Assembly: GCA_045837725.1 (NCBI GenBank)
Contig: JBEWZL010000013.1
Span: 1-64,000 of the forward strand
Reading direction: 5' to 3'
Length of the DNA stretch: 64,000 bases
DNA from: Vermamoeba vermiformis
Lineage: Eukaryota
Shown here: positions 2,409 through 49,427 of the stretch, piece after piece
How the letters are laid out: every line of letters begins with the position of its first letter
Position numbering within the stretch: the first letter of the stretch is position 1
The notes under the pieces: model-generated
Told to the model about the DNA's origin: nothing
What the model saw: only the letters and a program-made list of their open reading frames with translations
Database searches by the model: none
Made by a program: the position numbers and the translations under genes

Positions 2409-3325
2409 ATGCATCTTCAACATTCTCGCTGGTTCCACATTGAAAATTACCTCAAGATCACCCGACATCTGCGCCGCGAGCGACAAAACAGGCCAAAGAA
2501 GCAAAGAGTGATTCCCCCACGAATGCCACGGCATCAACCAGTTGGACCAATAGATATTTATGACAGAACTGGGGTTGAACGATCATCATTTACGCAAATT
2601 TTTGGCCTTGTTAAAGCTGATCTAGAAAAACCACGATCTGGAACCCGCAAGATCAGAGTCACTCTATCCTCAGCTCATCGCCTGCTAATGGTACTTCAAT
2701 GGCTATGAGAATACCCAAAATTTAAAGTAATGGCTCAACTCTATGGAGTGTCTCGCTACTTCGTGAAGCGCGAGATCCGACACCAGATTCCAATTTTATT
2801 TGTCAGATTGAATTGGATTGGCTGGCCCGGCGAATACGAGTTAAGTCCTGTTGGTGCACATGCTGCCATTGATTGCTCTGCCCATCAACGATTGCGAGTT
2901 CACCCAAATCCGCCTACTATTATCGCGGAGACAAACGAATTAATATGATGGTCAGCCAGTTTGTCGTTGGATTCAATGGAGCTTTGTACGAACTTGCTGT
3001 GGGTAAAGGACATAATAACGACCAAGCAATGTTCAATATTACGGGGGTGAAACTTCACACAGAACTCGATCAGTTAACTCTGCTCGCGGATCGCGGTTAT
3101 ATGCATCACAGAATAATCACTCCTGCCTCTGTTGATTGGTCGCAGTGCTCATCAAGTCATAGAGTCATAGTTGAAAACGTAATTGGGCAAGTGAAGAGAT
3201 TTGCCGCCGCATCTGCTACTTTTCGGCAATCGCCCGAGTTGCAAGCTCTTGTTATTGTCGTCTGTGGAGAAATTGTTGCAGAAAAGAATCGAGGCAATAC
3301 GCAGCGGTTTTTCCAGCTTGAATAA
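2409..3325 (+). mobile_element. DDE transposase of the PIF/Harbinger-IS5 type (HTH_Tnp_4 + DDE_Tnp_4-like), degenerate
   Basis: LSSAHRLLMVLQWL*EYPKFKVMAQLYGVS HTH region; catalytic motifs AIDC, LLADRGY, HRVIVENVIGQVKRF; intronless; in-frame TGA at 2706-2708 and a frameshift at ~2908. Confidence 0.85.
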
Positions 3326-3559: not shown

Positions 3560-6500
3560 TTAATTTTTGCTTGATTGACGATCTATGTCTTTCGTGGTAT
3601 CTGAGGACTTGTATTGCTCATTGATCGAATCAGCACGAGCAGAACCAGAGCCAACAACATTTGATATCTTTGAACGACCAGTGCTCGCACCTGGATTTGA
3701 GCCAGTGACAGTTTGAGAGGACGCGCTGAGCTTCTCTCGTTTGTTGATGATACGATAGAACTTCAGCACGTACAAGCAAAGAATTGACACAAGCGAAGAG
3801 AACAACAGACCAATCGAGGTGATGATCGCAGCAGTGGTTGTGTCATTCACGCCAATCAACGCAACCAATGGGATAACGATAATAAATAACAGGGTCATAT
3901 TATATACCTACGTTTCCGTTAGTCACGTTCTAAATGACTCCGAAGGAAGTAACTTACGGCAAAGAAGATTTCTTTGGTCTCTTTGTACGAGCCGAAGTTG
4001 ACGTTACGCGTACGGAAAGCAAAAAAGCAACCGATGAGGAACACAACACCCTGTAAGAACGATCAGATCAAGCAACGTGATGAAGTCCAACTTACAAAGT
4101 AGCATATCTGAGTAATCATAAAGGGGAATGAGTTGTCGGAATAGCAACCAAAGATACTGTCCTTTGTTCCTTCAAACTCGAGCGGACGAAGTTCTCCGAA
4201 GAATTGCCAGATGATGAGCAAGATCTAGCAGTAATTAGTACGCGCACTTAATAATGAAATAGAATGCAACTTACGACTTCCAAGCCCAACAGAACGGATA
4301 CTACAATCATCAGCTGACTGTCTCCAATCGGCTTAATCTTCGTCAACTTCTTTCGATGCCAGTTGAAGATACGATCAATGCGATAGCTCTTGACGGCCAT
4401 AGATCCAAAGAACAGAATAAAGCCGATGCAAACGAACCACAACCAGACCATGCATTGAGGAACAACCAAGACGATTAACACAGGCGAGAACATCATTAAG
4501 CCGGCACCAACGAGCGTCATCAAGCTAAAAGTGAGTGAGGAGTGCTTGATGGTCTTGGATTCACGGTGATAAAGAGAAAGAACGATGAAACTGATCGCTG
4601 CACCAACGCACGCGCAAGAAGCTGCTATCACTCCGCCACGAACCCCATCGCTCACGGGAATGAAATTCTCTGCTGGAGTCGTTTGTCAGTAACGTTTTGC
4701 TGATAAAAAGTAATAAAACTTACGAGGATACTGAACACCACAAGTATCGAACTTGAAGGCGTTCTCAGGAACTTCAGCGATCGAATAGTTTGACGAAGAC
4801 GAGATGCGTGTGGTAACGATTCGATGCAAACCTTGGTTGCACGTGCAGTTGTCAGCCGAGCCGCTGAAAGGACCAATCGCTTGACCGCCAATCAAAAAGA
4901 TGGTTTGACTGAAGACTGTGTCGAGGAAAGTCTCTCGAGTGATGTCCAAAGTGCTGTCAATGCTATCGAGCACTTTGATCAAAAACTCGGCAACAACGTA
5001 ACCCTCCAATGAGACGAAACCGAAAGTTGAAGATGCATCACGAGCCAGCATGGCATTTTGGTACAAAGCCACGAGCTGATTGCCGTCATCGGTGGGATCA
5101 GGTACCACTTGGGTGACGTAGACATTGTCGGTAGAGACCTGAACGGCACGGAGAGAACTTGCGAATGCCTCGCTGTCGACGAAAGAAACAGTGCCAAAGA
5201 CGAGGTCAGACTTCCAAGCAAGAGCCATTTGAACGAACTGGGCGAGTTGCTCGTATGTTCCAATGAGGACAATCGCTTGAGGATCACCTTCTTGAATGGA
5301 CGAGAAGCCGTCAGCAAGGTCGAAAGTGTTGCGCTCGTAGGTGCCTTGACTTTCCAGAGACATGGAGCGGTTCTTCAAAGCCAACTGAAGACCCTCGAGT
5401 CCCGCGCTGCCGAATCCGTCGTTTTGGTAGAAGATTGAAATGCGACGAAGACCCATATTGTCGATGAAATGTTGAGCCATTGCTGCAACCTCGTCAATGT
5501 ATGAGGCGCGCACATTGACGACATTGTGATTGCACGGATTACGCAAACTGCTAGCGCCAGTGAGTGCACCAATGAATGGCACGCGATTCTCGTTGATGAT
5601 GGGCAGAATAGCCTCGGAAGGAGCTGTGCCGACAGAACCCACTAAGCCAAAGACATTGCGCTCTCCAATGAAGTAGTTCGCATTTTCGGCTGCTGGATCC
5701 GGCTCGTAGCCATCATCGCGAGACAACAAGACCAACTTGCGATTGCGAACACCGCCTTGTTTGTTTCGAGCCAAGAATGATGCCAAAATACCTTGGCGCA
5801 GGCCAACACCGAGGTCCATCACGCTACCTGCTTGTCAAATAAAATGTCAGACATTCTCTCTCGTAATCACGTACAGGTAGTTACCTAAAAGAGGAGCGGA
5901 CTGGCCAAATACAATTGGAGGCACTACATCGCCGTTCGATGAGAGGCATGTGTCCCACGTGTACTTAGTCTCGGGCATATTAACTAAAGTCCCGTTCGCG
6001 TCGATGCTCAATAAGGAGACCGAACGCATGCCTTGATTGCAAGACTTTGAATAAGGTCCTAAGAGCAAGCCAGAGAGCGTAAAATATTGGCTGGACACGA
6101 GCACGTTCAAAAAGTTCTCGTGGCTAACATCTGGATAAGCTTGGGACAGCAGGTCGATGACCAAACGACCAGTAACATAACCTGTATTATTCGTAAGGAA
6201 TGCATACTATCTTACTGGCGTGCGCTTACCTTCAAATGAGAAGGTGGTCACTGAAGCGGAGGCGTTGTACGCGAACAAGGCACGTTCGTATTCTTTGATC
6301 AGATAGGGCTCTGCATTCGAGTGCAATGGAATAGCTTCGGAGATGTAGACCTCGCTCAGAGATACTCCGCTAATTATAATGCAACGAGAGTTAGCTAACG
6401 GAACAATTTTTGATACGCGTTTAAATTGCGCGTACCTCGAAGTAAGTGCATTGACGAATGATTCTGCGTTGACGAATGACACAGTGATGAAGATAATCGA

Positions 6501-12610: not shown

Positions 12611-14669
12611 TTAACGTTGTTGCTTGGAATTGTGGTACTTGAGGAACTGTTCCACGAGAGGAGCCATAGATCCGATGCCGGGATATTGCAACTGCGCAAA
12701 AACATTCATCCACAGCTCAGGAGGCAACAAATTCATTGCTTCTTGGCTTCTGAAAATATTCGCGCACAATACCATCGTATTTGCAATGACGCTCTTTCTG
12801 TACTCCAAATTGCGCTTCAAATATCGGGTAAGTTCAGGCCCGCTGCTAAAATCAGATTCAAGGAGCCAATAATTCTTAGCGAATATGGACTCCAGATCTT
12901 TCGTAGAGTTGCGCATGATAGAGCCAAGCTGGAGGGTCGTCAGTGTGTTGTTGGACTTCAAGGCTTGCACAAATTCTGAAACGGATATTCGGAGCTGAGA
13001 AACGACACATGTCCTCTTCTACCTTCAAAAAGGTGATGTTTGGATTGCATGTGATTATCTCGGCAATACTCGACAGAACCGTTCTCTTGTATTGATTGAC
13101 ATCGACAATAGTGAGATAGGTTCCTATCACAACCTTCTTCAGCGAGCTGTTGACCTTGATAGCATCACATAAGGTCGGGTACTGAGCATAGTCGAAATCT
13201 TTGCTGTGGTGACTGAAGTCGATCTCGGCGAGAGATTTGTTCACTAGGAGTACATCTGACAGCTTGAACATTGCAGCACGTGACAAACTGCAATGCGAAA
13301 GATTGAGGGACTCTAGCGTCGCGTTGACTTTCAGAGCCTCGCAGAAGTTGGTGAGGTCCGATGCTGCGAATACATTGCACGATAAATTAAGTACTTTGAG
13401 CGTTCTGTTGAGTAGAAGCGCATCACCCAGTGCTTGCAAATCGTCGCGAATGCTGCTATGCTGCAAATCAAGCCTAGTCAAGGAGGTGTTGAGCTGAAGA
13501 GCCTTGCAAATGGACTGAAAACCGCGATCGACAGTTGGGTGATTGTTGTATACGTTAAATGATTCTCGAGAACCGATAGAGAGCTCTGTAAGAGTGACGT
13601 TTCTGGCAATCAGATCCGCAACATGTTCGGCAGCAGCATTGCTGATGAGACCACGTTTCTGAGAGATGGTCAGCTTCTTTGCGGATGTGTTTTGAGCCAG
13701 GCCTTGCATCACAGGACCCATGCTGACATCGTTGAGTGAATTAGTGAGCTCCAACTCCGAGACCTTGCAGTGCTTCAAGCCATCGAGGGCGGCATCAGTG
13801 AAATTGGACAGCAGAAGGGAAGACAGAGTTAATTTCGCAGAGGCCGGCAAGTACTTTAAGCCAGCCAAGATGTCGCCGCTTGTCTGCATATTTTCAAGCT
13901 TGATTTGGACCAGCGATTGGTTCGCTTTCAACTCTTCGAAGAACTTATGTACCGCTTCAGAGGAGCAGAGACTGCCAAAGACATTCATTCGCGTGATGGA
14001 CTTGTTGGCTGCAATGCCCTTGGCGAGTTGTTCGGCCTCGTAAACGGAGCTGAATGACAAGTCAACCTCTTGAAGTGATCGGTTGACACTCAGACCATGG
14101 CTGATGTACGGCAGTCCTGCAGCTTCTACGGGACAGTCGAAGGCAAAGTGCCACAACTTCGTCTGTTGCTCGAGTAGCTGTCCGATGTATTTGCAAGCTT
14201 CGACGGACAGTACATTTTGGGATTGACCGCGAGAACGACGAAAAGTAAGATCTTCGACGGAATCATTTTCGACTAGCTTCTGGAAGATTATACTGGGCAA
14301 AGGCGTTTCGTCGAGGTGCACATGATGAATAAAGCTCAAATTAATGCGCGATCTTGCATCCAATTCAGGCTGGATTTGACGGAAAATAGTTGGAAATACC
14401 TAACCCACGTATTAAAATTGCCAAAAACCACAATAATATTAATATGATCATACTACTTACCGTTTGACAATTTGGGCACTTAGGTGCTTCGAACTTCTTT
14501 GAATGAAGTTTATTTTTGCAAACGGGACATGAGTCGCATTTCTAGGATACAATAGCGATTAGATTACGCCAACGGATAATATTAGTTGGATTAAAATCAT
14601 TAATAAAGATAACAATACGAATTAATGTACACTGGATCGCTCACTTGTGGTACTTGCCAAACGATTCAT
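12611..14669 (-). CDS. RNI-like LRR protein with N-terminal Cys cluster and C-terminal F-box-like motif (one frameshift at ~12990)
   Basis: Repeats of the N.(T/S)L..L.L type; upstream exon KCDSCPVC..KCPNCQT; C-terminal LLPPELWMNVFAQL. Confidence 0.8.
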
Positions 14670-32609: not shown

Positions 32610-35600
32610 CCGTAGTATGCACTTTACATCGGCCATTGACGTTTAGCATTGAATCGACGTCGAAGACGTGCACGAAAGGATCGGATCTCTGATCGACAAG
32701 AAGGTGAATGTTGATACCATTAAATGGTCTCAATAAACCTGAACTACTCGAGTAATAGGCGCCACTACCAAAGATGACTTTTTGGTTCACAGAATGAGGG
32801 AATTTCAAGCGATTCAACGTGTCAGAACTTGACATGTCGTGGCCAAATAGTTTGGTTGCAATTAGTATTAATATTAAACGTGCTGCCAATTGCAATGCTG
32901 ATGATTTTATGCGAGATTGAATCAAGTTAAATATGAGCATTACGAGGAAAGTGATCAAGGATCCGCCAGCTGACTTCAATGTAAGTTGGCCGCTAGAAAA
33001 TAGAAATAAATAATCTATGAATAATATTATGATCTTCTTATTAACGCTAAATAATTTATTTGAATTGATAGGAAAGGCCGTCAATAAAAATTGGTTATTT
33101 ATCAAAACAAGGAGGAAGAATTAAAACTTGGCACCGACGATGGATGATATTAAAAGACGGATTAGTGGCTTATTACAAAGATGCAAATGTAAGTGGCGGT
33201 CTCGTCGAGAGACTAAATCCGAGATTCGATTTTTTATTTCGTTTCCTACCGTATTTTGCTCATTAACAATTATATAATTTTTTTAAAAAATATTATCAAC
33301 CATAACATAGTTTCATCTGGCAGTAAGCAAGATATTTTTCGATTATCCAGTTTTCTAACATGTTGTAACTCGTGTAATAATGATCTAAATATAGCTCCTA
33401 CCTCACCGAGGTGTCATAACACTAGCTAGCAGTTCAATCATCGAACGAGAGAACTATGAGAATAAGCCCAATGCATTTTCAATCGTTACCCCAGAACGAA
33501 TTTATCATTTATTTGCTGATACCGAGGTACTTACGATTAAAATAATGATATTATAAATCCACGATAACTAATGTATAATATGCGTGCTATATTAGAAAGA
33601 AATGCTGCAATGGATTGAAGCTTTAAGAGGTGCCAGGCCCCGCGCTGTTTTGCCGCAAGAAGATGCCTCGTTAATCTCGCTATTTAAAGATCAAGTAAGA
33701 ATCATGCTGATTACACATATTACTATGATAATAATAATCTAATATTATTTTAAAATTAATTTAGAGAGCTGCCAGTGTTGGAACGGTCAAAGAAACATTT
33801 GCAAAGGATTTCAACGCATCAGAAACGGACGTAAATTCCATATTAGAGTTCTTGGAATTTAATTTCAAAGATTCAAACGCATTGGTAGACGAAGACGTCT
33901 TATTCAAATTTTTATCGTGGTTTTACCCGCTGGATCTCGACACTGAAGAACAGAAAACAGGATTCAGAAATGTAGATAAGGATAAGGAGAAAGCGAGTGC
34001 TAAGGCCAACTATACGATATCAAGAATAGCCTTTTTAGTCCACAAACCGTACGTATTTTATGGATGTCGTAGTTTTGGATCACGTCAAAACATATCATCC
34101 TTTGTTATGGATTATTTAATTAATGAATTATTAGGTGGTTTTTCGGCTCGCTAAAACTAGAAGAAACTGAAGAATTACTGCGCTCAAAGCCCTTCGTAAG
34201 AATGAGTTTGAATTTCGCGAGGCTTGTTCATTAATCTTTGCGATTATTTCATCAGGGAACTTACCTAATTAGGTTCGGCGAAGACAGAGGCAGTTTTGTC
34301 TTGTCAATGAAGGATTCATCTTCAGTCGGGCATTGGAAAATATTAACGGATCCGGAAACGAACGAACTATATTTAGAACCATCAGAAAAATTCGCGCAAT
34401 TACACATATTAGTAAATCACTATCACAATCAAAAGCCACCCAGCAGCAATCAACGGTTGACAGCGCCGTGTCAAAAACGAAGAAAAGAACGAACCTTTTT
34501 AGCGATGAGCAGTCAGCGGAACAATAGAAATCCCGAATTGAATTCTTCAGACGAGAATCATAGTAACAATAATGAAGTCAAAAAGGCGAGTTCATCGTTA
34601 GCTTCATTACGTGTGTCAGATCCGATCAATGACATTGACTTCTGCTGAGGCTGTTATTCATGAAAAACTTTCAGGTACGGTCACTTTAATCATATTACCT
34701 AATCCATATATGACTATTTTCATTACAAGGATTTCATTAACGTGGCTCTTGTTTTTTGCAGAGAATTACAATTCATACGTGTATCGATGCACGGTGAAAG
34801 GCTTCTCGTGCGCGGTGAAAGTGTTTGATTTGGAGTTTTTGCCTGAAGTGTTCGAATCAGAAGTATTCAACGAAGTCAAGTTTTTGCAAGAAGTGAGCCA
34901 CAATCCGTTGTTCGTCAAGTACTTGTACCACATCTACACTGGCAACCAATTGAAGCTATTTACGGAATATTTGCCGACAAATCTCAAATCTGTGATCAAA
35001 CAACGAGCAGCGGATAAAAAACCACTCAAAGCGGTCAGCATCCGCGACATTTCATTTGAACTAGCTCGTGCATTGAGCTTATTACACTCGCACAAACCAA
35101 AGATCATTCACCGCGATCTAAAGGTAACTAACATTATCATTGCCTAATTAGGAAAGTTCTAATTATGACACGTGTTAGCCTGATAATGTTTACGTCACGT
35201 TTGGGCCTGGTGATAAAGCCTCAGTTGTGAAGCTGGGTAATTTTGGACTATCAAAGTTTGCGACAACAAATACTGCCTCTTCAGTCGCGCTCACTGCTTC
35301 CTCGAACACGGTGCCATTGGCCTCGTTAAGTACGTACTTTCACCTGTTTAAAGTACCCTTCAAACTTACATTTCAAAGGATACATTGCACCAGAAATGCG
35401 AAGGCCACACGCACTATACGACGAATCCGTCGATGGTAAGATTGTTGTTAATAGAGTCATTGAAGCAGTTGCACTAATTCAGCTCTTGTTCAGTGTTTGG
35501 ATTTGGCCTGACGATGGTGGAGATGATCACGCTGAAGCCGACAGAGTTCATAGATGCGAATGATACCAAGTCTATGACATTACCAGAGGTACCACAAGTA

Positions 35601-36198: not shown

Positions 36199-37339
36199 TT
36201 GCCACTTAGTAACAGTATTTTATCGTAGGCATCTTGGCTGCAATTATTGGTATTTGTTGCGGATTGAAAATCAAGCGAACCAATGTCCAAGGCTCCTCTG
36301 CCTATTCGATCAGCTTTTTCATGTTCGCGTAAGTAATTCCCTCCGTAATTATTACAATACTTTATAACATATGTTATAGCTGTATGATGACTGATGCTAT
36401 GATCTGGCATTGCTTCTTGAACGGTTACAATAATTGGTCTTTCTGGGCGGATGTACGTGACACGAATTCATTTTCAGCGGTGAATTAATTCAATAATACC
36501 AATACCAATAGGTTACTGGCATCATTGACGGTGCTCTTAGTTCATGCGTCGCTATGAGCTTTGGTTTCAACGCTCTGTTTGACGTTGGTGTTATGAAAGA
36601 GGGCAGTCGCAAATCCGCAATCGTGAGTTTAAGCACCTAGCTCACTGTAACATTAGTACTCAAACTTACAATATCACGTACATAGGTCATGTCCGTCAGC
36701 TACTTGGCGATGATCGCTGCCTGGACCTACTCATTGATGTACTCGCAAAGCTGGAGCACTGCTTTCTTGGTGTTGTACGGTCTTGTCATTGCACTCTGCT
36801 GCGGTTTGTACAGCATTGTCACATTGGTCCGTGTCATTCAAAGCAAAGGCGTTGGTTTGAGTACGTAATAGATAGGCTCGTAATTGTGAAACAAGATGCT
36901 GATCGTGTCAACAGAGAACCTCACGATCGGTGTCCTTACTGGTGCCCTCGGTCTTGCTAGCGTGTTCTACTCACCTTTGAACGCATTCTGGTGCAGAGTG
37001 TTCGGTGCTTTCCTGAACTCTGAGTGGTGGTGGTTCATTTTGTCTGACATTTCAATGTATTATCTGTACAAGTACTTCATGGACAGCCACGTGCCTCAAA
37101 CTCCCAAGACCTACGCTTACTATGGCGACAGCGACGATAGTGACGTCGAATTGGACGAGGAAAGTGACGAAGAAGGTGACGAAGAGACTCCTATGCGCGT
37201 GCAACCTCGTTACATCCACGTTCCGCAACAACAAGTTCAACAACCTCAGCCCATCTACTACGTCTCTGTGCCTTATTATCCTACCCCTATGTATTATGCT
37301 CCTTCTCAAGTGACTCCTGTGTATCACACTCAACAATAA
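36199..37339 (+). CDS. Uncharacterised multi-pass membrane protein with acidic and Pro/Tyr/Gln-rich tail (5' end uncertain)
   Basis: Several hydrophobic exons with GT-AG boundaries; last exon in ORF 36896..37339. Confidence 0.55.
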
Positions 37340-37442
37340 ATGCTTGTGACTGGGCTAAAAATAGTTGTCGAGATTTTTTTCGAACACAGCCAACAACACG
37401 GCCAACCAACCAATCAATACAGTAGTTTCCAACACGGCACAA

Positions 37443-40400
37443 ATGTCCCTTTCAAATTTGCGTAGTTTTGAGATAAAAGATCTTCGTTCGGTCAATTATT
37501 GTTTCAATTTTCAACAATAGACGCCCTTGATAATTATTGAAAACAAACTAAATTTGGTAGTTATATTTACTCGATAAAGGTAAAATCTAATTCGTCATTG
37601 TTATGTTACAATAATATTTAAATGAAAGGCAAAACAAAAGATAAATTAGCTAATCTGTCTTCAAAACAATTTTAATTTGAAGATTTAATAGGTGTAATGT
37701 TACGAGTGGATACAAACTACAGCATTCGTGTTGGTTTCATCCACGATGAATCATTTCATTCCATCAGAAGCCTAGATGAAGTCACGGGCCGAGTTACCTT
37801 GCAAGCCAAGCAAAATACTTTGTGTTTTACCTTTGGCCCTTTTACCTACTCGTTTGCCAAGAGAAACTTAAAGAGATTCTATTGGAGCTCGGATTTGGAT
37901 GAGATCACCTTTGAATGGGATTACAACACTGGTCCAAAAATTCACGTAGGCACGAGTCGAACTACGCATAATCCCTTGCAGCTTGATGCGATTGAGTGCA
38001 ATGCGTTGTCGTTTTACGTGAAGCCTGCAGAGCCAGGCACTCAACGAACTTTCGAGAAGATCTTCCGCGTTGTCGACCACGATTTGCCCTTAGTAGAACA
38101 AAAGCAACACGAAGTACCTATGCCCAATGAGTTGCCTTTAATAGTAGGCTTGTATTTGGAGACCTTGTTATCGATGACAGATCCCGAGAGGCAGGATCAC
38201 ATGGAACTTTTGGCGGAAACTCCTCGATGCCAGTACCGACGAGGCTATAAGCGCGTTGATGCTGATGAAGAAGTCGAAGGCTATGATTCTCAATCCCACG
38301 GAAGCTCTGCAGCGTGAGCTCGAATATCTTGAGACGCTGGATCCGGAGGATTGGCCCTCGAAACAGCAGGAGAATCGACAAAAGAAGGACGAAGCAGCTT
38401 TGGTCTTTCAAATTGAAGTCACACCCACGAAGATGTACGTCATTGGACCCATCTTAGAGAGGTCCAACCGAATCTTGAAGAAGTACTGGAAGTACCGCGA
38501 TCATTTTGTACGAGTGCGCTTCACCGATGAAGATGGCTCGCCCATGCAAGCATCAGAGACCGAGATCGGACAGCTCGTGCACGATAAGCTCATGTATGGA
38601 ATTACGCTAGCTGGACGGTAAGTTTGTGTCAAACAAGCTTCTTCAGGTTGCTGACTTGTTTTTTGTTCTTGACAGCAACTTCACCTTTTTGGCGTGGTCC
38701 AATTCTCAGCTCCGCGGACACGCGTGTTTTCTATTCACCAAGATACTGAACGAGCATCGAATCGTCACCGCGCGAGACATTATCGATCAGCTGGGAGAGT
38801 TTTGGGATGATTCCCCTGCGAAACGTGGTTCCAGAGTCGGTCAGTGCTTGACTTCCTCACTTGGCGGTATTCGCATTTCCGTCAACAAGTGCGAAAAAAT
38901 CAAAGACATTACTCGAAATGGCTACGTGTTCTCAGATGGTGTTGGCACTGCGTCTCTTGGGGTGATGGAACTCGTTCAAAAGAGATTGAAGTTGCCGGAG
39001 GTGGTATCGGCGATTCAAATACGCTACGGAGGTAACAATACGGAGTACTTGCTATACCATTTGTAGTAACGGTTGGTTTTGACAGGTGCCAAGGGAGTGC
39101 TATCGTTGGACGATAGACTGCCCGGAGTGGGCATCAGACTTCGTCCAAGCATGTGCAAGTTCGATAGCTCGCATAGGGACTTGGAGGTTACAGACTACTC
39201 TACCTACCGCCCAGCGTATCTTAATCGACAGCTGATCACGCTGTTGCTGTCACTGGGGACTTCAGCAAAGTCATTGCAACGGCTCGAAGAGGCAATGACG
39301 TCAAACATTGACAAGCTATTGGCAGGTGTTGTCAATAAGAAAACGTTGGATCAGATCACTTGGGGCCATAGCAAAGAGATTCTGAAGGAGACGATTGGCA
39401 CCTTTGGATTCGACGACGCGTTCTTACGCGCCTTGATCAACAAGCACAGCAGCAAAGCACTCAAATTGTTGATCAAGAAGACTCGGATATTTATTCCGAA
39501 TAGCGCTTACGCGATGGGCATTCTTGACGAATACGGATGTCTTGAAGAAGACGAAGTGTTCTATCAAGGACGAAGTACGTCAATTTTTTCTCGAAAAGTG
39601 AGCACTTACTAATTGCATTGATGTAGCGGAAGACGGGAAAGTGATTCCGTTTGAAGGCGAGGTTATGGTAACCAGATCGCCAGCCGTGCATTCAGGAGAT
39701 GTTCGTATACTTAAAGCTGTGCATAGATACGACTTGTCACATCTCTACAACGTCGTTGTATTCTCCAGAAAAGGACAGCGACCAGTTCCAAACATGATTT
39801 CAGGTTAGTACCTTGGCTCGGCTAAATACGTATTTCCTGTTATGGTCAATTAACGCAACAGACAGGCGGAGATTTGGACGGCGACCACTACACAATAATT
39901 GCCGAGAAGTCAATTTTTCCTAAAAGAACAGTTGCTCCAATGGATTATACGACAAAACCAAAGTCAATTGCAACGAAAACCCACTCTTGGCCTGAGGATC
40001 CAATCAAATTCTTCGTGCATTACATGGCCAACGACAATCTGGGAAAGGTTGCTAATACTTGGCTGGCACAATGCGAAGTGCAGGAGAGAGGTGCGTTGTC
40101 ATCAATTGCAGTTGAGCTTGCCCACATCCACTCGACAATTGTAGATTTCCCGAAGACAGGTACGTCTTGTTGCGGGACAAAACTCCGTTCTAAACTATTG
40201 GACAGGCATTTCTGCCACTTTGCCTGACCACTGCAAAGCGTCAAAGTATCCTGATTACATGGGCAAATTACCGAAGAAGTCCTTTAAGTCTAAATCCTTC
40301 ATTGGGCAGTCGTTTAGAAGGTTAACGGCGAAATACGGCGATCCGTTCCAAGTCGATGATTTTACGCTTGAAGTGGACGGCGATTTGAGCTAATATCCTG

Positions 40401-40956
40401 GTACGCACCAATATTCAACACCAAACATTGTTTTTGCTGATAATGAACAGGCAACGAGGAATGGATCGACGAAGCCCTCGATGAATACAATGCGTACTGT
40501 ATTCAAATGCAAGGCTTGATCAATGATTTTAATGCATCTTCTGATGTCGATATTGTCACTGGAATACTACCTCCGACTGCACACAAACGATACCGTGGGA
40601 AGTAAGATCATTCGATGTACTCAATGTATTATTACTTTATTCATTCTCTGTACCAAAGGAAATCGAATACGGGTGAAAAGTTGGACATTGCATTCGCGGA
40701 CCTGAAGAAACGCTATTTGGAACGTTTTAATCAAGGAATCAGAGATCGTAAGTTGATGTTGTTCGAGATCACGCAATTTACCAAATTTTATTTAGATGAA
40801 GACAAGGTTGCGAAAGCTTCGGCTTGGTACCGCGCTGCGTACGAATTGTCAGACAAAAAGCCAGAATTTGCAAGCTTCGCTTGGATCTTGGCGGAACACT
40901 TGGTGGACATCAAAGAAACCGCAAGTTCTAGCCGCTCTAAGCGCCTTCGTTTTTGA
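37443..40956 (+). CDS. Cellular RNA-dependent RNA polymerase (RDR/QDE-1 family), copy 1; frameshift at ~38175 and in-frame TAA at 40391-40393, possibly a pseudogene; start uncertain
   Basis: SNRILK, FVRVRFTDE, FLAWSNSQLR, YVFSDGVG, QIRYG/GAKG, LNRQLI, TRSPAVHSGD, ISG/GDLDGD, VDFPKTG, YPDYM. Confidence 0.9.
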
Positions 40957-41048
40957 AATCATTTAAATTCTTAAATCTGATTGCGATGTTTTTTCACTGT
41001 TTCAGTTTTTTAATCGCAATAAAAGATCAACTTTTTGTGATCTTTTTG

Positions 41049-41077
41049 CAACACGGCGAAGATTCTCCGCCGTGTTG
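41049..41077. promoter_or_regulatory. Perfect 10-bp inverted repeat CAACACGGCG-N9-CGCCGTGTTG upstream of RdRP copy 2
   Basis: Direct sequence; CAACACGGC also occurs twice (37394, 37430) upstream of RdRP copy 1. Confidence 0.45.
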
Positions 41078-41128
41078 GGTTTAGTATTTGAAAGAACGAG
41101 CCAAACGAAACAAATTCTATTAATCTTA

Positions 41129-44100
41129 ATGGAAATGGAACGCGATTGGGGTTATGAACAGCTTAGCCAGGCAATGATGATGAACATGGAAGGTACTGAG
41201 AGAATTTGGTTACCAATTGCAATTTAACGTAAAAATACAGAATCTCTGCAATACTTCATTGACTTTGGTATGGAGCAATTATTTGATAATATGAATCAGC
41301 CTTCGCAAGGTATAAGCATCCGGATTCGCTAATTCAGACTTTTTTTAAATTTAATTGCAGAGTTATTTGTTCAATATCTCCTTGTTAGACCCCTACCTTC
41401 AGAAGAAGAAATAAGAGCTGAATTTTCACAATATGGAACAATTTTACGGATCAAAATAATGCCAACCAAATATTGCGCACTCGTTCGATTTTCCTCTGTG
41501 GAAAGGTTTGTCACACGTTTAAACTGTAATTTATTCTAACTATTCGTTCAGTGCGATTCAGGCTATTAGGACACCAAAATCAACTTTTGTTCGGAGACTA
41601 GACTACGGAAATGCTCGTGTTTTTCCTAAACCTCACTTTTCAGCCCTTGCTCTTGCCTCAGATTCGTCAATCATGGTTGGATTCTATCAAAATAACATTT
41701 TTTATTGCAACTTTACTGCGGATGCAGCACCCGTCAGTCTGGCGAACAGTCATAAGGAGCGTTTGATTCATCTCTACGTTAATGACAAACAAGTAACCTA
41801 TACATTCAAATACAGTCAAATTGAGAGGCTCGTCTATTGCGAAGGTACAGCACAGTTGTTGATGGAGTGGGCATTTGGCACGGGCCCTCAGATCTACACC
41901 TTCGAAGGTGAAAGAACACTCTCAAATCCGCTTCACCTGACTGAAAAAGATTGTCACGCATTTATTCTTACAATTCAAAGAGATCAGGACATTCACACGA
42001 TAATGAACGGAATTTTCGTACAAACCGTAGCATCACTCGAAATTGCGGACATGCCAAACAATGTCCCGATCCATCGAGAGCCAATACACTCACTCGACGT
42101 TGAATTGATGCTAGAATCATTGATATTAAGCAAAATTCCGAAGCGATTGATCACCGAAGAATTCTACGAAGTTATAAATCGAGCTGACGAAGAACGGCTG
42201 AAGTACGCGTTACGTCTATTAATACGCAACCAACGAGGATTCATTCTAGATCCTACGAAAGAGATCAAGCAGGCCTTAGTCAAAGTTGAACAGCGTTCTA
42301 TTCGACAATCGCTTCGAAGTAGATTGATGGACTCTAATGACGCAGAATACATGAGATTATTTGCACTTGAAATCACTCCCACGAAATGGTTCTTGACAGG
42401 TCCGATGATTGACAGGTCGAATAGAGTGCTGCGCAAGTACCAAGCCTACTCGTACCACTTCATTCGAGTCACTTTCCGCGATGACGACGGCAACAAATTG
42501 AACGCTATTAACGGCGAGCTTCAACAGTACATCACCGATAAATTGAAAAATGGAGTGACGTTGGCTGGAAAGTAAGACCTTACCAATTTATCGCGTGAGT
42601 CTAACTTCTTCAGAACATTCGTTTATCTGGCTTACGCAAATTCGGAACTGAAAAATCATTCCTGCTATCTCGTAGCGCCATTTGAACATGATGGACGGGT
42701 TATCACTGCAACGGACATTATTCACGGCCTTGGAGAATTCGACGAACAAACAGTTGCTAAGTGTGCTTCCAGAATAGGTAAGCGTACGCTTCGTAAGCTT
42801 TTCATTTCTTAATATCGTTCTTATACGATACCAGGTCAATGTTTTTCAGCGACTGTGGGTGGTGTCAAAGTCACATTTGATCCAAGATTAATCGATGACA
42901 TTCCAAAAAAAGGCAACCTCAAGTTCTCTGACGGAATAGGAAAAATTTCGCCTAGCATGGCACGAAAGCTCGTTTATCTGCCACAGTTGCGAGTGAAGCT
43001 GATGCCATGTGCCTTTCAAATAAGATTCAAAGGTAATAGTCAATAACATTATTTGCTATTTAATCTAGATTATAATTAAATTATTTCCAACGCAGGTTAT
43101 AAAGGCATGCTGGTCGTGGACAATTCTTTAAAGGGCGATCAAATTCACATGAGAGCAAGCATGGACAAGTTCACAGCTAATGAAGAGGACAATGAATTGG
43201 AAGTCAATGGATTCTCAGAGTACAGACCTGCATTCATGAACCGTCAAATGATCTTGCTATTATTAGCGCGTGGTGCATCAACAGAAGCAATGGAAATTCT
43301 CCGAAACAACATGATCAACAACTTGCAAGCTCTATTTGATGACAGCTTATCAAAGACTAAGTACCAACGCTTGCTTTCATTTACGATTGGATTCGGAGGC
43401 ACTGTTCTGCGGGAGGTAGCTCACGGGTTCAAGCACGATGCCTTTGTGCATGATTTGCTGAGCGTACAGTGCACGAAAGTCAATCCAGCAGTTAATCAAG
43501 AAGACAAGAATTCACGTACCTTTAGGAGCGCATTTGTACGGAGTGTTAGACGAAGATGGGTTATTGGAAGAAAATCAAATCTTCGTTCGTTTGCACGGTA
43601 ACATCAGCGAGTTGCTGTTTCGTGACGCTAATTTATCATCCAGATGATTCTCTTCAAAAGCACGTACAAACGATCAAAGGACCGGCATTTGTAACGCGAA
43701 GTCCGTCGCTGCATCCTGGTGACATTCGAATGGTCGAGTGTGTCGATGTGCCTCAGTTGCGGCACCTTGAAAATGTTATTGTACGTATAGTTAGATTATT
43801 CCAAATATAATAACGCTCACTTTTATTTAGGTTTTTCCTAGAAAAGGAACGCGACCCTTGACCGACATGATTTCGGGCGGAGATTTGGACGGGGATCGTT
43901 ACACCGTCATTTGGGACAAATCGTTGTTTCCAAAGCACGATTTTAAGCCAATGAAATTTACTAAGCCACAAGTGGCGGAAGAACTGAATGTCTATCCTGA
44001 CGCACACATCAACTTCTTTGTGAAGTTCATGGCTACAGACGCGCTCGGACAAATCGCAAACGCATGGTTAAGCCACGCTGAAAGTGACATCAAGAAAGGC

Positions 44101-44896
44101 GCAGCTTCAGATGATTGCAAGCAATTGGCCGAACTTTTTTCGCTGGCAGTTGATTATCCCAAGACAGGAGGTAATCCGATTGTCATGCCTGGGTACTTGA
44201 TCCCAAGGGAGTATCCAGAGTATATGATGAACCCGTTCAAACCATCATTCTACTCTAAATCGTTCATTGGCGACTCCCACCGCTATTTCAAAGAAATGTT
44301 GGGCTCGTTCATGCGCGATTTCGAGCAAGAGAAGCACCTCACAGTTGATAACGATCTAATTGACTACCCTGGTGAGCCTTCGCGAACATTACATACTGGA
44401 TATGGATTAACTAGTGTTCTAGGATCTGATCGATGGTTTGATGAGGCTCAACGAAGCTTTACCGAGTACGAGCAGCGAATGAACGAGCTGATCCGTATCT
44501 TTGAAATAACTGAGGTTGAAGCGTTTTCGGGCATAATGCTGTCATCTTCCAAGTACTCTAAACGCAGGTATGGCACTTATGATTAATTTGATACGACAAC
44601 TGACAAAGCTTCACTAGACAAAACACTGCTGAGCTGCGCATCAGATTCTCAAGCATTAGAAGCGAGCTCATGCGCCAATTTGATCGTGGAGTGTCAGGTG
44701 CGTGCGACATCTTGACCGTCGGTTTTTTTGTCTGACTGATTCTACAGGGCTCAACGATGAATTTGCTAAGGCTTCGATGTGGTATAAAGTGGCATACGTG
44801 GTCAACCAACGAATGCCTAGTTTTGCGTGGCTCGTGTACGACAAACTGCTGAAGATCAAAACAATGCGCCAACCAAGGTTTAACGACATACAGTGA
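41129..44896 (+). CDS. Cellular RNA-dependent RNA polymerase, copy 2, with N-terminal RRM; one apparent 1-bp indel at ~43477
   Basis: RRM-like SEEEIRAEFSQYGTILRIKI..CALVRFSS; SNRVLR, FSDGIG, FQIRFK/GYKG, TRSPSLHPGDIR, ISGGDLDGDRY, AVDYPKTG. Confidence 0.93.
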
Positions 44897-44967
44897 AGCG
44901 GAGTTTATTGACATTAGATTGTTTACGCGGCTGGATCTCAACAGCAGAATTTTATTAACAGCAAATA

Positions 44968-46728
44968 TTAAAAAATTTTATTTCTTTTTGCTTTCCATGT
45001 CTTCATAGCCAACGAAAACATCGCCGAAGATTGTAAAATGTGTTGCCAGATCTCGATCGGAAAAACTTTTTCTACCTGGCGAACGATATTACACCACAAT
45101 ATAACTGCATCTACACGATATTCTCTATTTCTTTTTAAATAAGGATCAATATCTCGGCGCTTTACCACTTCGGAGTTGAGTTGAACGAGAGTTTTGTTCG
45201 CTGAAAACACATCCGCTATAATTTTGAGTTCTGATTCGGTTCGATCTTTCGACTGCGCAAATAAGTCCAAACTATCTAGCGTATAGTTATACTTTAGGCT
45301 CGGCAGTATATTTTCTAAGGTTAAAGCTGCGGGTTTTCGTCGTTTCTCCTGGATCCCGCTGCACTTTAATTCCTTTAGCGTAGTATTGTATACTATTAAA
45401 TCGCTGATAAATTGAACTAATTTCTTTTCGTTTTCTTGGTATGTCATTTGCGAAATGTCTAAACTAGTCAAATTTTGATGCTGCATAATCGCGTTGTAAA
45501 AACTCGTCAGATCTTTAACGTAAATTTCTTTCAAGGAGATTTTTGTCAATGCCTTATTGTATTGTAATAAATCTATTATTTCTTTCGTGGTAATTATGCT
45601 CTTAGGATGAAGATCCAGTGTCTGTAGTGTTGTATTTGCTTTCAGTGCGTTGAGGAGAGTCGAATCATTTCCTGTTGGCTCTTCTATGTGGAATTTTCCA
45701 AGAAATAAATGCTTCAGCGTCGTATTTGTGGCTAACTCCGCGGCGAAATTTTTCAGGTGATCCACATCCAACAATAAATCATTGCCTGAACTATATTTTC
45801 GCTTATTTATCGTCAATGACCTTAATATATTATTACTGTTATTTTCCAACAAATGACCGGTAATTATTTTCATGCCCTCAGGCGAAATTCCGAGGATCTT
45901 AAATGACTCGATCGTTGGATGACATTTGACTGCTAATACTATCAGCTGAACATCTTCTATCAATTGAGTATTACTAGAGTCTATTATTAATGTCTTTAAT
46001 GACCTGTTTGCGGCAATTGCATCAGACAGATCCGAATAATTCTCTGGATAAAAAATGTTCAGTTCAAATAGCTCCAATTTCGTTGAATTGCGCAATATAT
46101 TCACAATAGACGTTAACACATTATCTATAGTTGGTATAAGTGATAGTTGTAGCTTGGTAATGTTGCTGCTCAAAACGAATCTATCAAAGCCAGATCCAAC
46201 TCCTTTCGTGTTGTTTAAAACCAGCCGTTTTAGATTTCTATTCGTATATAATAGATCAAATAATGGATCTAATATAAACTCGGGTATATCAGATAGCTCT
46301 AAGGATTCCACCGATGATCCGTTGATTGCTTTTGCCAAGATCTCGATCGATTGTTTGTCTGTCAGGACTGAAGTGACATGATCGGACAATATGAGCTTTT
46401 TAATAGTCTTATTCTTGCTCAAACAATTAGCTAGCAATTGCATTTGTTCGGATGTGACATAAGCAGTTGATCCAAAATAGCGACGTCTGAACTGGATCTC
46501 GAGTCTTCTTAATGCCGAATTGTTCAAAATAAATTCAACGATGTCATATGATTTATCATCTTCAACTGAAATCTCTATAACTAGTTCGTCAAGTGATCGC
46601 ATCTGGGCGACATGTTCGGCTAACTGTGGTAGTGAACAGCTTCCCGGATAAATAATTATTCGGTCCTTGGGCACAATTATATCGTCGCGCACTGAGTTGG
46701 GGAGAAAAATGAAAGGAGAGGCCTGCAT
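44968..46728 (-). CDS. RNI-like LRR protein with C-terminal F-box-like motif; paralog of the 12611-14669 gene; 5' exon(s) probably missing
   Basis: 586-aa ORF with N.TL..L.L repeats; YLKRNREYR..FPIEIWQHIL; preceded by a splice acceptor. Confidence 0.82.
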   Translation of the reverse strand: MQASPFIFLPNSVRDDIIVPKDRIIIYPGSCSLPQLAEHVAQMRSLDELVIEISVEDDKSYDIVEFILNNSALRRLEIQFRRRYFGSTAYVTSEQMQLLANCLSKNKTIKKLILSDHVTSVLTDKQSIEILAKAINGSSVESLELSDIPEFILDPLFDLLYTNRNLKRLVLNNTKGVGSGFDRFVLSSNITKLQLSLIPTIDNVLTSIVNILRNSTKLELFELNIFYPENYSDLSDAIAANRSLKTLIIDSSNTQLIEDVQLIVLAVKCHPTIESFKILGISPEGMKIITGHLLENNSNNILRSLTINKRKYSSGNDLLLDVDHLKNFAAELATNTTLKHLFLGKFHIEEPTGNDSTLLNALKANTTLQTLDLHPKSIITTKEIIDLLQYNKALTKISLKEIYVKDLTSFYNAIMQHQNLTSLDISQMTYQENEKKLVQFISDLIVYNTTLKELKCSGIQEKRRKPAALTLENILPSLKYNYTLDSLDLFAQSKDRTESELKIIADVFSANKTLVQLNSEVVKRRDIDPYLKRNREYRVDAVILWCNIVRQVEKVFPIEIWQHILQSSAMFSLAMKTWKAKRNKIF

Positions 46729-46889
46729 CTGAATGTAAAAAATAAAAATAATTATTAGTTTTTGTTCACCCGGCCTCTGTCACAATTAAACGTTATTATT
46801 AAAAATTGGTATTAATAATCATATATTTTATTATTATTTAATAGTTGTTGACTAGTCAAAGAAAAATTATGTAATGACGCAGAAAAAAA

Positions 46890-47700
46890 CAGGTGTACGA
46901 ACAAGAAAAACGGAGAGGCCCCAGACCCACGCAACCCGACCCTGTCGCACCGCCGCTAAGCGAGTACGTCTCCCCTCCTCCCTTTGCTCCCTTTGCTTCT
47001 TTTGAGCTCACGGACAAAACAGACAACCCCGAACGCGAGGCGACCGCGCCGCCGCTCGTCGCTCGCTCGCGGCCGTCGCGCAACAGCCGACGGGGCAGGT
47101 CCTCTCCCCCAATACGACGAAGGCCCGCCCCGGGCCGGGGGCGGGGCCCCCCCCGGGGGGCCGCGCCGGCGGCGAGGGCCAATGGGGGGAGGGGCGGAGG
47201 CGCCGGACGGGAGGGGTTTAGAGGGGGGGTTCCCGGTTATGTTTTTGGGTAGGGGGAGTAGAGCGGCGGGAGTGTTGGTGCGGCGGTGGCGGAGGGATGG
47301 GGGGTTTTTGTTCGGGTTTGTGGGGCGTTGTTTTGGTTTTTTGGAGTTTGTGTGTTTGAGAATGGGTGCGGTTTGGGGTAAGTTGAGGTAAGGGAGGGGG
47401 GGGGGGGGGAGTGGGGTGGGTAAGAGGGGTGTGTTGGGGCTGCAGTGACTGAGGGGGGGGGGGAGGTGGTTTTTGGTTCGGTAGAGGGTGTTTTTTTTGC
47501 CGGGATTTTGAGGGTAGGGTGGGGAGAGTGTGCTGGGAGGGTGATGTGTTAGGGGAGGGTAGGGGGGGGGTGAGATTTTTGAGGAGAATGGTTTGTTTGT
47601 TTTAATATATTGAAGTATCTCTATTTAACGTTGGGGGGGGGGTTGGGGAGGTGGGGGGGGGGGGGGGAAGTTTTTATGAGAAAAGGAGAGGGAAAGGGCG
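46890..47700. other. GC-rich low-complexity, strand-skewed tract; probably low-quality sequence
   Basis: Abrupt composition change, long G/T homopolymer runs, no credible ORF. Confidence 0.6.
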
Positions 47701-47759
47701 GTCCGTTGCCGGGAGCGATGCGTCACCGCGTAAAGAGGGTGTGTACGTCTGCCTTCACA

Positions 47760-49427
47760 ATTACCTCAAATCCTTTAGATCGGAGTTAAACAAGATTTGG
47801 CATGTAAGACTAAAGTTTGGAAGAAGAAAAACAAATAAATTGGTGTTTGACTTGTGGGGTTCGGTCAAAAAGGCGGCTGAAAAATCCTGGCTGTCGTTTT
47901 TTGAAGAACGTTGTTGGTTCATCCAAAAAACCAACAAACCAACGATGGCTACGCGATCTTTCGCGACCCTTATCCCGTTGCGTTGCTGTTTAGTGTGTTG
48001 GTTGCACATTTTGTACAAAATTCCAAGTTTGGTTGAAGCGAGCGTTTTAATTTATTCCAGATCCAGAGGATCTAAACCCACGTGGACATTATTCGTGAGA
48101 CGGTTTAAATAGCCACAACATCTTCGTATGAGGAAGGACAGCTATATTTCTCCACACGCGAACCATTTTCACGTTGTTAGCGCCGGTGAATTCTTCCGTC
48201 AATACTAAGTGCTCCAATTTTGGTACAACGACGCTATTGATAATAGCAAAACTTGGCAGATCTGCATCGATCGATCGTACTGTGAGGACTGGTTTGACAG
48301 TACGTAATGTCTCGATCAATTTAACATTTGCGGGGACTGGCTGCTGACCCGTCCAAAGGCCATCTATCAAATAACTCATTAAAATCCACAAAAATAGTGT
48401 AAAATTAAAAATAATATCGTTTTGTTAGTATAAAATGATAATAGTAAAGTCGTTTTGATAGAATATTAATTCTACGGTACCTTCAACTGTCGTTGTTTTG
48501 ACCGACATCCATGCAGATCCGTCAGGTGACCATCTCCAATCGCCATCAGCATAAATGTAGTAAATCGGAGTAGCGCCTGCTTCCCAATTAAGGAAAGCAA
48601 GACTATATTTGGAAATTTGTCCCTTGGATGTGAAACTGGTCGGCGCTGGTATTCCGAATATAGGACCGAAGTTATCGTGGTATAATATCGAGTTCATACG
48701 GTTTAAATAATGACTATATTCCATATCATTGATGCGTACTAATGGAACAACAGTCATGCTCGGTGCTGCAGAGATAGTAATGTCAGATCTGATTTTCAAA
48801 TAAAATTATGAGACTTAAAAATTTACCTTGCAGAGCCTCGCTTTGATTAGGTGTAATATTAAGCTCTAAATGAATTATTTAGCACTTAGAATGCGATAAA
48901 GGGAGCAGAGATTCGGATCTTACTGGATCTGCGCGATCGAAACAACGTTTTAACGCAATCTTGCCACGAAGCAAAGCATTTAGGCACTAAATAGTCTTCG
49001 CCTAAATAAAACTATAATAGGGTTAGCATTGAAGGCGATAAACACGCGAAGAAATTTCTCGATCAGCTTACCCCAACATTTTTATCTTCCCCTAGCATTT
49101 GAAAGTGATGCTTGAAACATAGATGCCATAATGTATCGTTAAATAGGGTCTGCCAGGTCTTGCAAACGGATTGACTGCGAGCGAACGGCACCGCTAGAAA
49201 ACTCGATCAGAACAGGAATTCCAACCCCAAAAATTACGAATATTATTTAGCTTGCAACAAATATTACCACATATCGAAACAAATAATAATTAGCGAATTG
49301 AACGTCTCAGATTATTCAGCACGTGTCATTGCAAATATTTGAAAATCTTTTTGATTGGCTTACCCTCTAAGTACGAGAATATCTGCGGCCATATCTCTAC
49401 GGGAATATTTTGAATAATATCTTCCAT
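47760..49427 (-). CDS. N-terminal F-box protein with unrecognised C-terminal domain (3' end uncertain)
   Basis: Exon 1 MEDIIQNIPVEIWPQIFSYLE; exon 2 QSVCKTWQTLFNDTLW. Confidence 0.72.

Follow-up and report, generated by a model that had tools for sequence, protein, structure and literature searches.

How are two closely spaced genes for cellular RNA-dependent RNA polymerases (RdRPs) related to each other and to the known RDR enzymes, and are both of them intact in the window, i.e., the whole stretch of 64,000 nucleotides that was analyzed? Two genes matching the eukaryotic RdRP family PF05183 were found head to tail on the + strand with 172 bp between them, in agreement with the first-pass annotation, which had described two co-oriented RDR-family genes about 170 bp apart. 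The gene models were as follows.

37697..40956, + strand: copy 1, RDR-alpha-type RdRP gene without an RRM, 9 exons, about 943 aa
37697-38617, 38676-39031, 39086-39574, 39627-39803, 39866-40159, + strand: copy 1, exons 1 to 5
40206-40400, 40451-40601, 40659-40747, 40796-40956, + strand: copy 1, exons 6 to 9
39871..39885, + strand: copy 1, catalytic DLDGD loop (motif in the sequence)
40957..41128, no strand: spacer of 172 bp, with AATAAA at about 41019 (read from the sequence)
41129..44896, + strand: copy 2, RDR-alpha-type RdRP gene with an RRM, 12 exons, about 1070 aa
41129-41192, 41241-41309, 41361-41505, 41552-42571, 42614-42777, 42835-43032, + strand: copy 2, exons 1 to 6
43096-43597, 43644-43780, 43831-44371, 44423-44567, 44618-44697, 44748-44896, + strand: copy 2, exons 7 to 12
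41361..41620, + strand: copy 2, RRM, split by the intron 41506-41551
43882..43896, + strand: copy 2, catalytic DLDGD loop (motif in the sequence)

The PF05183 profile matched 12 of the 16 exon pieces (five of eight in copy 1 and seven of eight in copy 2) with scores of 36-136 bits, the cut-off being 23.8. The matches are colinear with the profile, covering about positions 1-533 in copy 1 and 1-576 in copy 2 (1-582 at the widest), and the catalytic DLDGD is kept in both copies, as previously noted. All 19 introns have GT-AG ends, those of copy 1 being 46-62 nt long and frame-preserving, and the frames are open across the introns in both copies with the exception of three lesions. Copy 1 had been proposed to start at 37443, but only a 25-codon open reading frame (ORF) opens there. 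The start was instead assigned to the ATG at 37697; all three relatives likewise begin with MLR[VA]DT, a start that aligns near residue 140 of copy 2. The earlier intron set of copy 1 also overlooked an eighth intron (40748-40795), while the intron that it placed within the GGDLDGD region was found at 39804-39865, just upstream of the DLDGD loop (MIS/GGDLDGD). The spacer is limited by the copy 1 stop codon TGA (40954-40956) and the copy 2 ATG (41129), and no bacterial promoter or terminator pattern matched in it, a pattern set that is not informative for a eukaryote.

The two copies differ at their N-termini. The RRM_1 profile matched the copy 2 exon only (41363-41503; E 9.5e-6 and 25.8 bits, where the cut-off is 20.7), and an RRM is also present in the copy 2 orthologue P0001 (26.4 bits), so that the comparison with the N-terminal RRM of plant RDR1/2/6 holds. 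The domain search found no RRM in the copy 1 pieces or in the 357 bp upstream, as expected from the first reading of this gene. The N-terminal helicase was likewise correctly reported as missing: the domain search revealed no helicase, and no other domain beyond RdRP and RRM, in the exon pieces of the two copies or in the ORFs upstream.

The copies are strongly diverged, with 36.2% identity (332 of 917 aligned positions). They share six intron positions in the same phase, including the three named before (after TLAG, in QIR..G and after YP) and three more. Each copy has its own orthologues in other eukaryotes, namely P0106 (943 aa, 73.3% identity), P0105 (63.5%) and P0321 for copy 1, and P0001 for copy 2 (57.8% overall and 73% in the catalytic exon). 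Trees were calculated under LG+G4 (43 rows) and LG+C20 (23 rows), and in both of them the copy 1 group with P0106 and P0105 and the copy 2 group with P0001 are sisters with an SH-aLRT of 100. The separate orthologues and the sister groups support the earlier suggestion of an old duplication, one that would be confined to a lineage with poor sampling. When 1.84 billion representative proteins were searched exhaustively, only P0001 (1341 bits) and P0321, a fragment, scored above a plateau at about 529 bits, and only three or four relatives stand out in this whole set. No metagenome contigs of close relatives were found in a scan with P0321, and a scan with the profile of the relatives gave seven loci, all distant (28-46% identity). 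Beyond their own orthologues, the nearest relatives of the pair are the cellular RDRs of plants, fungi and animals.

RDR-alpha comprises RDR1/2/6, SAD-1, Rdp1 and EGO-1/RRF, and QDE-1 belongs to RDR-gamma, in the grouping given in PMC8713982. In both trees, the pair lies on the side of plant RDR1/2 and fungal SAD-1, apart from the QDE-1 types. Neither RDR-beta, Dictyostelium Rrp, Rdp1 nor EGO-1 was represented in the trees by a labelled sequence, and it is only against the QDE-1 types that the alpha placement was judged. In the comparison with alpha, beta and gamma clades proposed in the first-pass annotation, the pair falls with alpha against gamma, and the part concerning beta is outside these trees. 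Both copies carry DLDGD, not the DFDGD of gamma types; the latter association is mentioned in PMC3610679 and PMC4442973.

When the profile of the relatives was compared with the PDB, RDR2 was matched with an E value of 7.5e-135, and QDE-1 only with about 1e-29 to 1e-30. A predicted structure was obtained for P0001, which is the copy 2 orthologue and not a protein of the window, with a pLDDT of 82.7. This model has a TM score of 0.73 to RDR2 and about 0.5 to QDE-1, and contains the double-psi beta-barrel polymerase fold. Its RRM occupies residues 47-113, followed by strands in 124-260 and helices in 275-356. RDR2 is described in PMC8713982 as having an RRM, a domain resembling a beta-barrel, and a bundle of helices. 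The predicted arrangement in P0001 matches this order, and copy 2 would accordingly be laid out like RDR2, with the RRM before the beta-barrel-like domain and the helical bundle.

The first-pass annotation regarded both genes as intact. In the window, however, copy 1 contains a frame break and an in-frame TAA, and copy 2 contains a frame break. A fourth site concerns a base at which the window and the reads differ.

38177..38180, + strand: copy 1, exon 1, extra base and frame break; the window reads LETLLSM[+1]IPRGR
40391..40393, + strand: copy 1, in-frame TAA (DGDLS*YPG); P0105 and P0106 have DLSSYP, with Ser
43475..43479, + strand: copy 2, extra base in or beside a GAAAG run inside the RdRP domain, frame break
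41694..41694, + strand: copy 2 exon, base present in the window and absent from read contigs; the window is in frame here

Read evidence was taken as contig depth from two DNA runs, X1 and X2, which come from one sample that is possibly the source of the assembly and hence do not give independent support. The relatives are in frame at the copy 1 break (SCQIPRGR, SMYIPRGR and SMQIPRGR), which lies outside any homopolymer run. The base at 38179 is absent in 304.2 of the 576.8 depth in X2 and 74.4 of 149.7 in X1, and the window letters are backed by 272.6 and 75.3, respectively. At the copy 2 break, P0001 reads QCTKSVQKLIDKTR uninterrupted. The X2 contigs lacking one base there, at 43475 (376.4) or at 43479 (380.7), make up the entire depth of 757.1; the evidence at this site is from X2, as X1 has no cover there. 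Since no read contig supports the extra base, the copy 2 break most likely arose as an error in the assembly consensus. The base at 41694 is absent in all of the X2 depth (330.2 of 330.2) and in 79.3 of 159.9 in X1. The window frame around this site is colinear with P0001, and a compensating change beyond the indels listed is possible; the difference could point to a second, broken version of copy 2. For each of the frame breaks, the reads include at least one version that is in frame.

Several other explanations of the lesions were tried and rejected. The GT..AG spans at the frame breaks are only 14-29 nt long, whereas the other introns have 46-62 nt, and a tiny intron there would also delete conserved residues. 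Reading TAA as a sense codon is at odds with a single in-frame TAA in about 2000 codons, at a position where the orthologues have Ser. An alternative donor near 40371 combined with the acceptor at 40458 would skip the TAA in frame, but the donor is weak and conserved residues would be lost.

We consider it probable that the genes are ancient RDR-alpha duplicates, of which copy 1 was recently disabled in the version represented by the window, and that the copy 2 break is an assembly error. That the disabling of copy 1 is recent is suggested by an end branch about equal to that of P0106, by the rough pN/pS between the two read versions and by the presence of the frame break in about half of the depth in two runs. 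Both genes might instead be fully functional, with all three lesions (two frame breaks and the TAA) being assembly errors, which we regard as unlikely. The extra base in copy 2, absent from every covering X2 contig, shows that errors of this type do occur in the assembly. Copy 1 also evolves no faster than its orthologue (end branch 0.17 versus 0.16 for P0106 in the 43-row tree), and the differences between the two read versions are enriched for silent changes: the 38 differences listed for copy 1 affect 29 codons, with 16 silent and 13 non-silent changes, giving a rough pN/pS of about 0.26. However, the copy 1 break is carried by about half of the contig depth in two runs and does not fall in a homopolymer run.

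It is very improbable that the locus is decaying, with both copies being pseudogenes or becoming so and amplification of RNA silencing being lost. Three lesions within 7.5 kb and the further 1-nt difference at 41694 would fit such a decay, but the GT-AG ends of 19 of 19 introns, the frames open apart from the lesions, the retained DLDGD loop and full Pfam colinearity, the short end branches, the rough pN/pS of about 0.26 and the in-frame versions at the frame breaks all argue against it. That the pair is cargo of a mobile element or a viral insertion rather than host silencing genes is scarcely credible. A DDE_Tnp_4 transposase-like ORF at 2873-3322, about 34 kb away, would fit it, but the genes have spliceosomal introns at common positions, a GC content like that of the surroundings, ordinary cellular neighbouring genes and cellular RDRs as closest relatives.

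Among the neighbouring genes, an SH2 piece gave weak matches to the SH2 domains of animal kinases and adaptors (E 1e-6 and weaker), and a kinase piece had no match at E 1e-10 or better. A skewed stretch at 46.7-48.3 kb contained no tandem repeats.

Under the preferred reading of ancient duplicates with a recently disabled copy 1, a short-intron microbial eukaryote would carry two cellular RDR-alpha genes head to tail. Copy 2 would keep the RDR2-like layout of RRM, beta-rich domain, helical bundle and a core with the DLDGD metal loop, and copy 1 would be the same enzyme minus the leader and the RRM. We infer a silencing role for the pair only from the family: each enzyme would copy single-stranded RNA and so supply small-RNA silencing with double-stranded RNA, and the pair may or may not form the specialised silencing or antiviral clade suggested in the first-pass annotation. 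Copy 2 probably holds its template with the help of the RRM, and copy 1 would have to find templates otherwise. The sequenced version of copy 1 would be an allele that was disabled recently by a frame break and a nonsense codon, next to a second version of equal depth that is in frame at the break. No Dicer or Argonaute was found among the window ORFs of at least 90 aa. Two RNA runs with the same species label (X15 and X17) gave 0 reads on the locus and are no test of expression.

With this pair, the RDR-alpha family gains a distinct branch that is sparsely sampled. The pair also shows clearly how an RRM was lost following a duplication, which could help to ask what the RRM adds to template choice. 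A more far-reaching idea, which we hold to be distinctly unlikely, is that the genes form a conserved module of an RRM-bearing and an RRM-less polymerase with divided tasks, e.g., a template-selecting primary enzyme and an amplifier, and that the two versions carry opposite null alleles, with copy 1 broken in the window version and another version having copy 2 altered at 41694. If so, each version would give only one working enzyme, pointing to early loss or dosage relaxation in RNA silencing. Annotation of the window as written would give two pseudogenes, even though an assembly error probably accounts for one of the breaks and another belongs to one sequence version only.

Among known enzymes, the Arabidopsis and maize RDR2 and plant RDR1 and RDR6 share the PF05183 core with DLDGD with both copies, and with copy 2 they also share an RRM at the N-terminus, after which come a beta-rich domain and a helical bundle; RDR2 is the top match in the PDB both by sequence and by fold. 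However, identity to plant RDRs is only about 30-35%, copy 1 has no RRM, the pair makes up a separate clade outside plants, and it has no known link to Pol IV or any partner. Both trees place the SAD-1-type and early-diverging fungal RdRPs (Mucoromycota and chytrids) together with the pair in the broad group apart from QDE-1, with about 43% identity in the catalytic exon and an RRM in some members (P0052, P0059 and, weakly, P0005). They are longer (1100-1600 aa), and a sister relation to the pair is unsupported, the forks being open or below 95. QDE-1 of RDR-gamma (Neurospora and Thielavia) has the double-psi beta-barrel fold in common with the pair (TM about 0.5 for the P0001 model), but it forms a separate, strongly supported clade and has a PH_fung_RdRP N-terminal domain and no RRM.

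Tandem RdRP paralogues are known from C. elegans (ego-1/rrf-1) and Arabidopsis (RDR3-5), which are likewise adjoining and co-oriented and have divided roles. These are far more alike than 36%, and the window pair also differs from them in that one partner has lost the RRM. Dictyostelium RrpA-C carry an N-terminal helicase domain, which is absent from the window pair. RrpA-C are described in PMC11014262 and PMC3950715 as cellular RdRPs by which an amoeboid protist silences transposons. Taken beside these systems, the gene pair is of an ordinary kind and leaves known views of RNA silencing unchallenged.

Exon models were scripted from the window, which is eukaryotic DNA of 38-48% GC with short GT-AG introns, and donor/acceptor combinations were checked for open frames. 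Two neighboring RdRP genes, copy 1 and copy 2, were modeled with a spacer of 172 bp between them:

37697-40956, + strand: copy 1, ATG 37697 to TGA 40954-40956; 9 exons, 8 introns of 46-62 nt
~38177-38180, + strand: frame break in copy 1 exon 1, between LETLLSM and IPRGR
39871-39885, + strand: DLDGD of copy 1, read from sequence
40391-40393, + strand: in-frame TAA in copy 1
41129-44896, + strand: copy 2, ATG 41129 to TGA 44894-44896; 12 exons
43475-43479, + strand: frame break in copy 2, one extra base in or beside the run GAAAG, inside the RdRP domain
43882-43896, + strand: DLDGD of copy 2, read from sequence

The first-pass annotation had started copy 1 at 37443, where the ATG opens a frame of just 25 codons. 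Because all three copy-1 relatives (P0105, P0106 and P0321) begin with MLR[VA]DT, corresponding to ATG 37697, the start was moved there. An eighth copy-1 intron (40748-40795) had also been overlooked. Six intron positions are common to both copies, each in the same phase, including the three already annotated after TLAG, inside QIR.G and after YP. Two introns are peculiar to copy 1: one follows DFPKT and the other, as had been claimed, falls at the catalytic motif, splitting MIS from GGDLDGD; those peculiar to copy 2 are three near the N-terminus plus one each following SRI and ENVI.

A Pfam scan of 16 exon pieces from both copies matched PF05183 in 12, in colinear order. A single piece, 41363-41503 in copy 2, matched RRM_1 (25.8 bits against a cut-off of 20.7), and three copy-1 pieces (the N-terminal 158 aa and two C-terminal pieces) matched no Pfam family. 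The proposed architecture thus holds: DLDGD is encoded in both copies, the RRM occurs in copy 2 only, and no helicase or other domain turned up in the exon pieces, in the short exons that open copy 2 or in ORFs within the 357 bp preceding copy 1.

A search with the catalytic exon of copy 2 revealed P0001 (jgi, 928 aa, RRM plus RdRP) at 73% identity, followed by fungal SAD-1-like proteins at ~43%. A copy-1 exon used as query returned P0105 (jgi, 950 aa) and P0106 (EukProt transcript, complete ORF, 943 aa) at 73-75%, followed by plant RDR1 at no more than 38%. A profile of P0001, P0105 and P0106 found no further relative above ~35% identity among the 120 matches listed, which came from Mucoromycota, plants, chytrids, an oomycete, arachnids and QDE-1 types. 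When 1.84 billion representatives were searched exhaustively by profile, 7426 matches reached E ≤0.001; P0001 (1341 bits) and the fragment P0321 were the only two to exceed the plateau, which starts at 529 bits. The gene pair is confined to a lineage with sparse sampling.

Trees were built from 43 rows under LG+G4 and 23 rows under LG+C20, hand-picked for taxon spread and including no labelled RDR-beta, Rrp, Rdp1 or EGO-1. In both, copy 1 with P0106 and P0105 and copy 2 with P0001 were sister groups, with SH-aLRT 100 for each group and for their union. The union fell among plant RDR1/2, SAD-1 types and chytrid, mucoralean and arachnid enzymes, and QDE-1/PH_fung_RdRP types formed a separate clade. 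The copies are 36.2% identical (332/917 aligned positions) and each has its own orthologues, bearing out the suggested old duplication. The pair is a real tandem of anciently diverged RdRP genes, probably of RDR-alpha type; in these trees, which contrast RDR1/2 and SAD-1 with QDE-1, it lies on the side of the former.

Neither gene is intact in the window. Relatives read through the copy-1 break in frame (SCQIPRGR, SMYIPRGR, SMQIPRGR), and the TAA corresponds to Ser in P0105 and P0106 (DLSSYP). In copy 2, the Pfam pieces before and after the break match profile positions 199-323 and 330-367, and P0001 is uninterrupted there (QCTKSVQK). Tiny introns as the cause of the frame breaks and a reassigned TAA were considered and rejected.

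Two DNA read runs, X2 and X1, come from one sample, possibly the one behind the window assembly. Over 37300-45100, their contigs fall into two sequence versions of similar depth that differ by roughly 2-4% and could represent alleles of a very heterozygous diploid, homeologues or two strains. Compared with the window, 45 X2 contigs were at least 99% identical and 39 were 95-99% identical (118 and 86 for X1). The versions differ by many substitutions and by 1-nt indels in introns. At 38179, one base is omitted in 304.2 of 576.8 depth (X2) and 74.4 of 149.7 (X1), so the copy-1 break is genuine for roughly half of the depth, and the second version keeps the frame. At 43475 and 43479, omissions (376.4 and 380.7) account for the whole X2 depth of 757.1, X1 having no cover there; no covering X2 contig has the extra base in copy 2, which is thus most likely an assembly error. 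Among the indels listed, one base at 41694 in a copy-2 exon is absent in 330.2 of 330.2 depth (X2) and 79.3 of 159.9 (X1); the window is in frame there and colinear with P0001. Two RNA runs with the same species label gave 0 matching reads, which has no bearing on expression.

Copy 1 is not an old pseudogene. Its end branch (0.17 and 0.15 in the two trees) matches the one leading to its orthologue P0106 (0.16 and 0.17). Of 40 listed substitution differences between versions, 38 lie inside copy 1: 6 are intronic and 32 alter 29 codons (16 silent, 13 non-silent), a rough pN/pS of ~0.26 in this partial sample of listed substitutions only. P0321, a 307-aa gene call, is 92% identical (283/307) to copy-1 exon 1 and in frame. 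As written in the window, copy 1 represents a disabled allele, its TAA being read from the window sequence.

The neighbors are ordinary cellular genes, including CYRI, an aldehyde dehydrogenase, a Na/H exchanger, a sulfate permease and LRR proteins; no Dicer or Argonaute domain was found among window ORFs of at least 90 aa. An intronless LRR-rich ORF of 603 aa (44968-46779, − strand) is convergent with copy 2, 72 bp from its stop, and has no Pfam match at E 0.001; another of 507 aa (12879-14399, − strand) matches LRR_6 and LRR_1. One gene at 34235-35144 (+ strand) encodes an SH2 domain, weakly like those of animal tyrosine kinases and adaptors, then a protein kinase domain with no PDB relative at E ≤1e-10. 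In a class C GPCR-like gene (4251-5834, − strand), 7tm_3 adjoins a periplasmic-binding/ANF-receptor ligand domain, and an ORF at 2873-3322 (+ strand) carries a DDE_Tnp_4 (Harbinger-type) transposase domain (E 3.4e-8). The interval 46001-48000 has strong GC skew (0.257), GC raised to 0.478 and several overlapping open frames, including a Pro-rich low-complexity reading on the − strand; tandem repeats were sought there and none found.

Beyond the family, catalytic loop, architecture, paralogy and lesions established here, family membership suggests that both enzymes would convert single-stranded RNA to the double-stranded form used in small-RNA silencing. In copy 2, the RRM may assist in guiding the template, as has been suggested for RDR2; in copy 1 it may have been lost following the duplication, given that some outgroups carry an RRM (the fungal P0052 and P0059, and plant RDR2). 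PMC8713982 sets out the order of domains in RDR2, demonstrates that the RDR2 RRM binds RNA and names alpha and gamma RdRP members.

A structure of P0001 was modeled from a 33-row alignment including two window exons (mean pLDDT 82.7). The C-terminal ~40 residues (~887-928) align to neither copy 2 nor other RdRPs, have pLDDT <50 and probably reflect an unspliced intron or frame error in the record. Isolated RRM domains matched the N-terminal unit in Foldseek. RDR2 of Arabidopsis and maize was the top Foldseek match (TM 0.70-0.73, up to 985 columns), whereas QDE-1 scored lower, at ~0.5; a PDB sequence profile search gave 7.5e-135 for RDR2 and ~1e-29 to 1e-30 for QDE-1.
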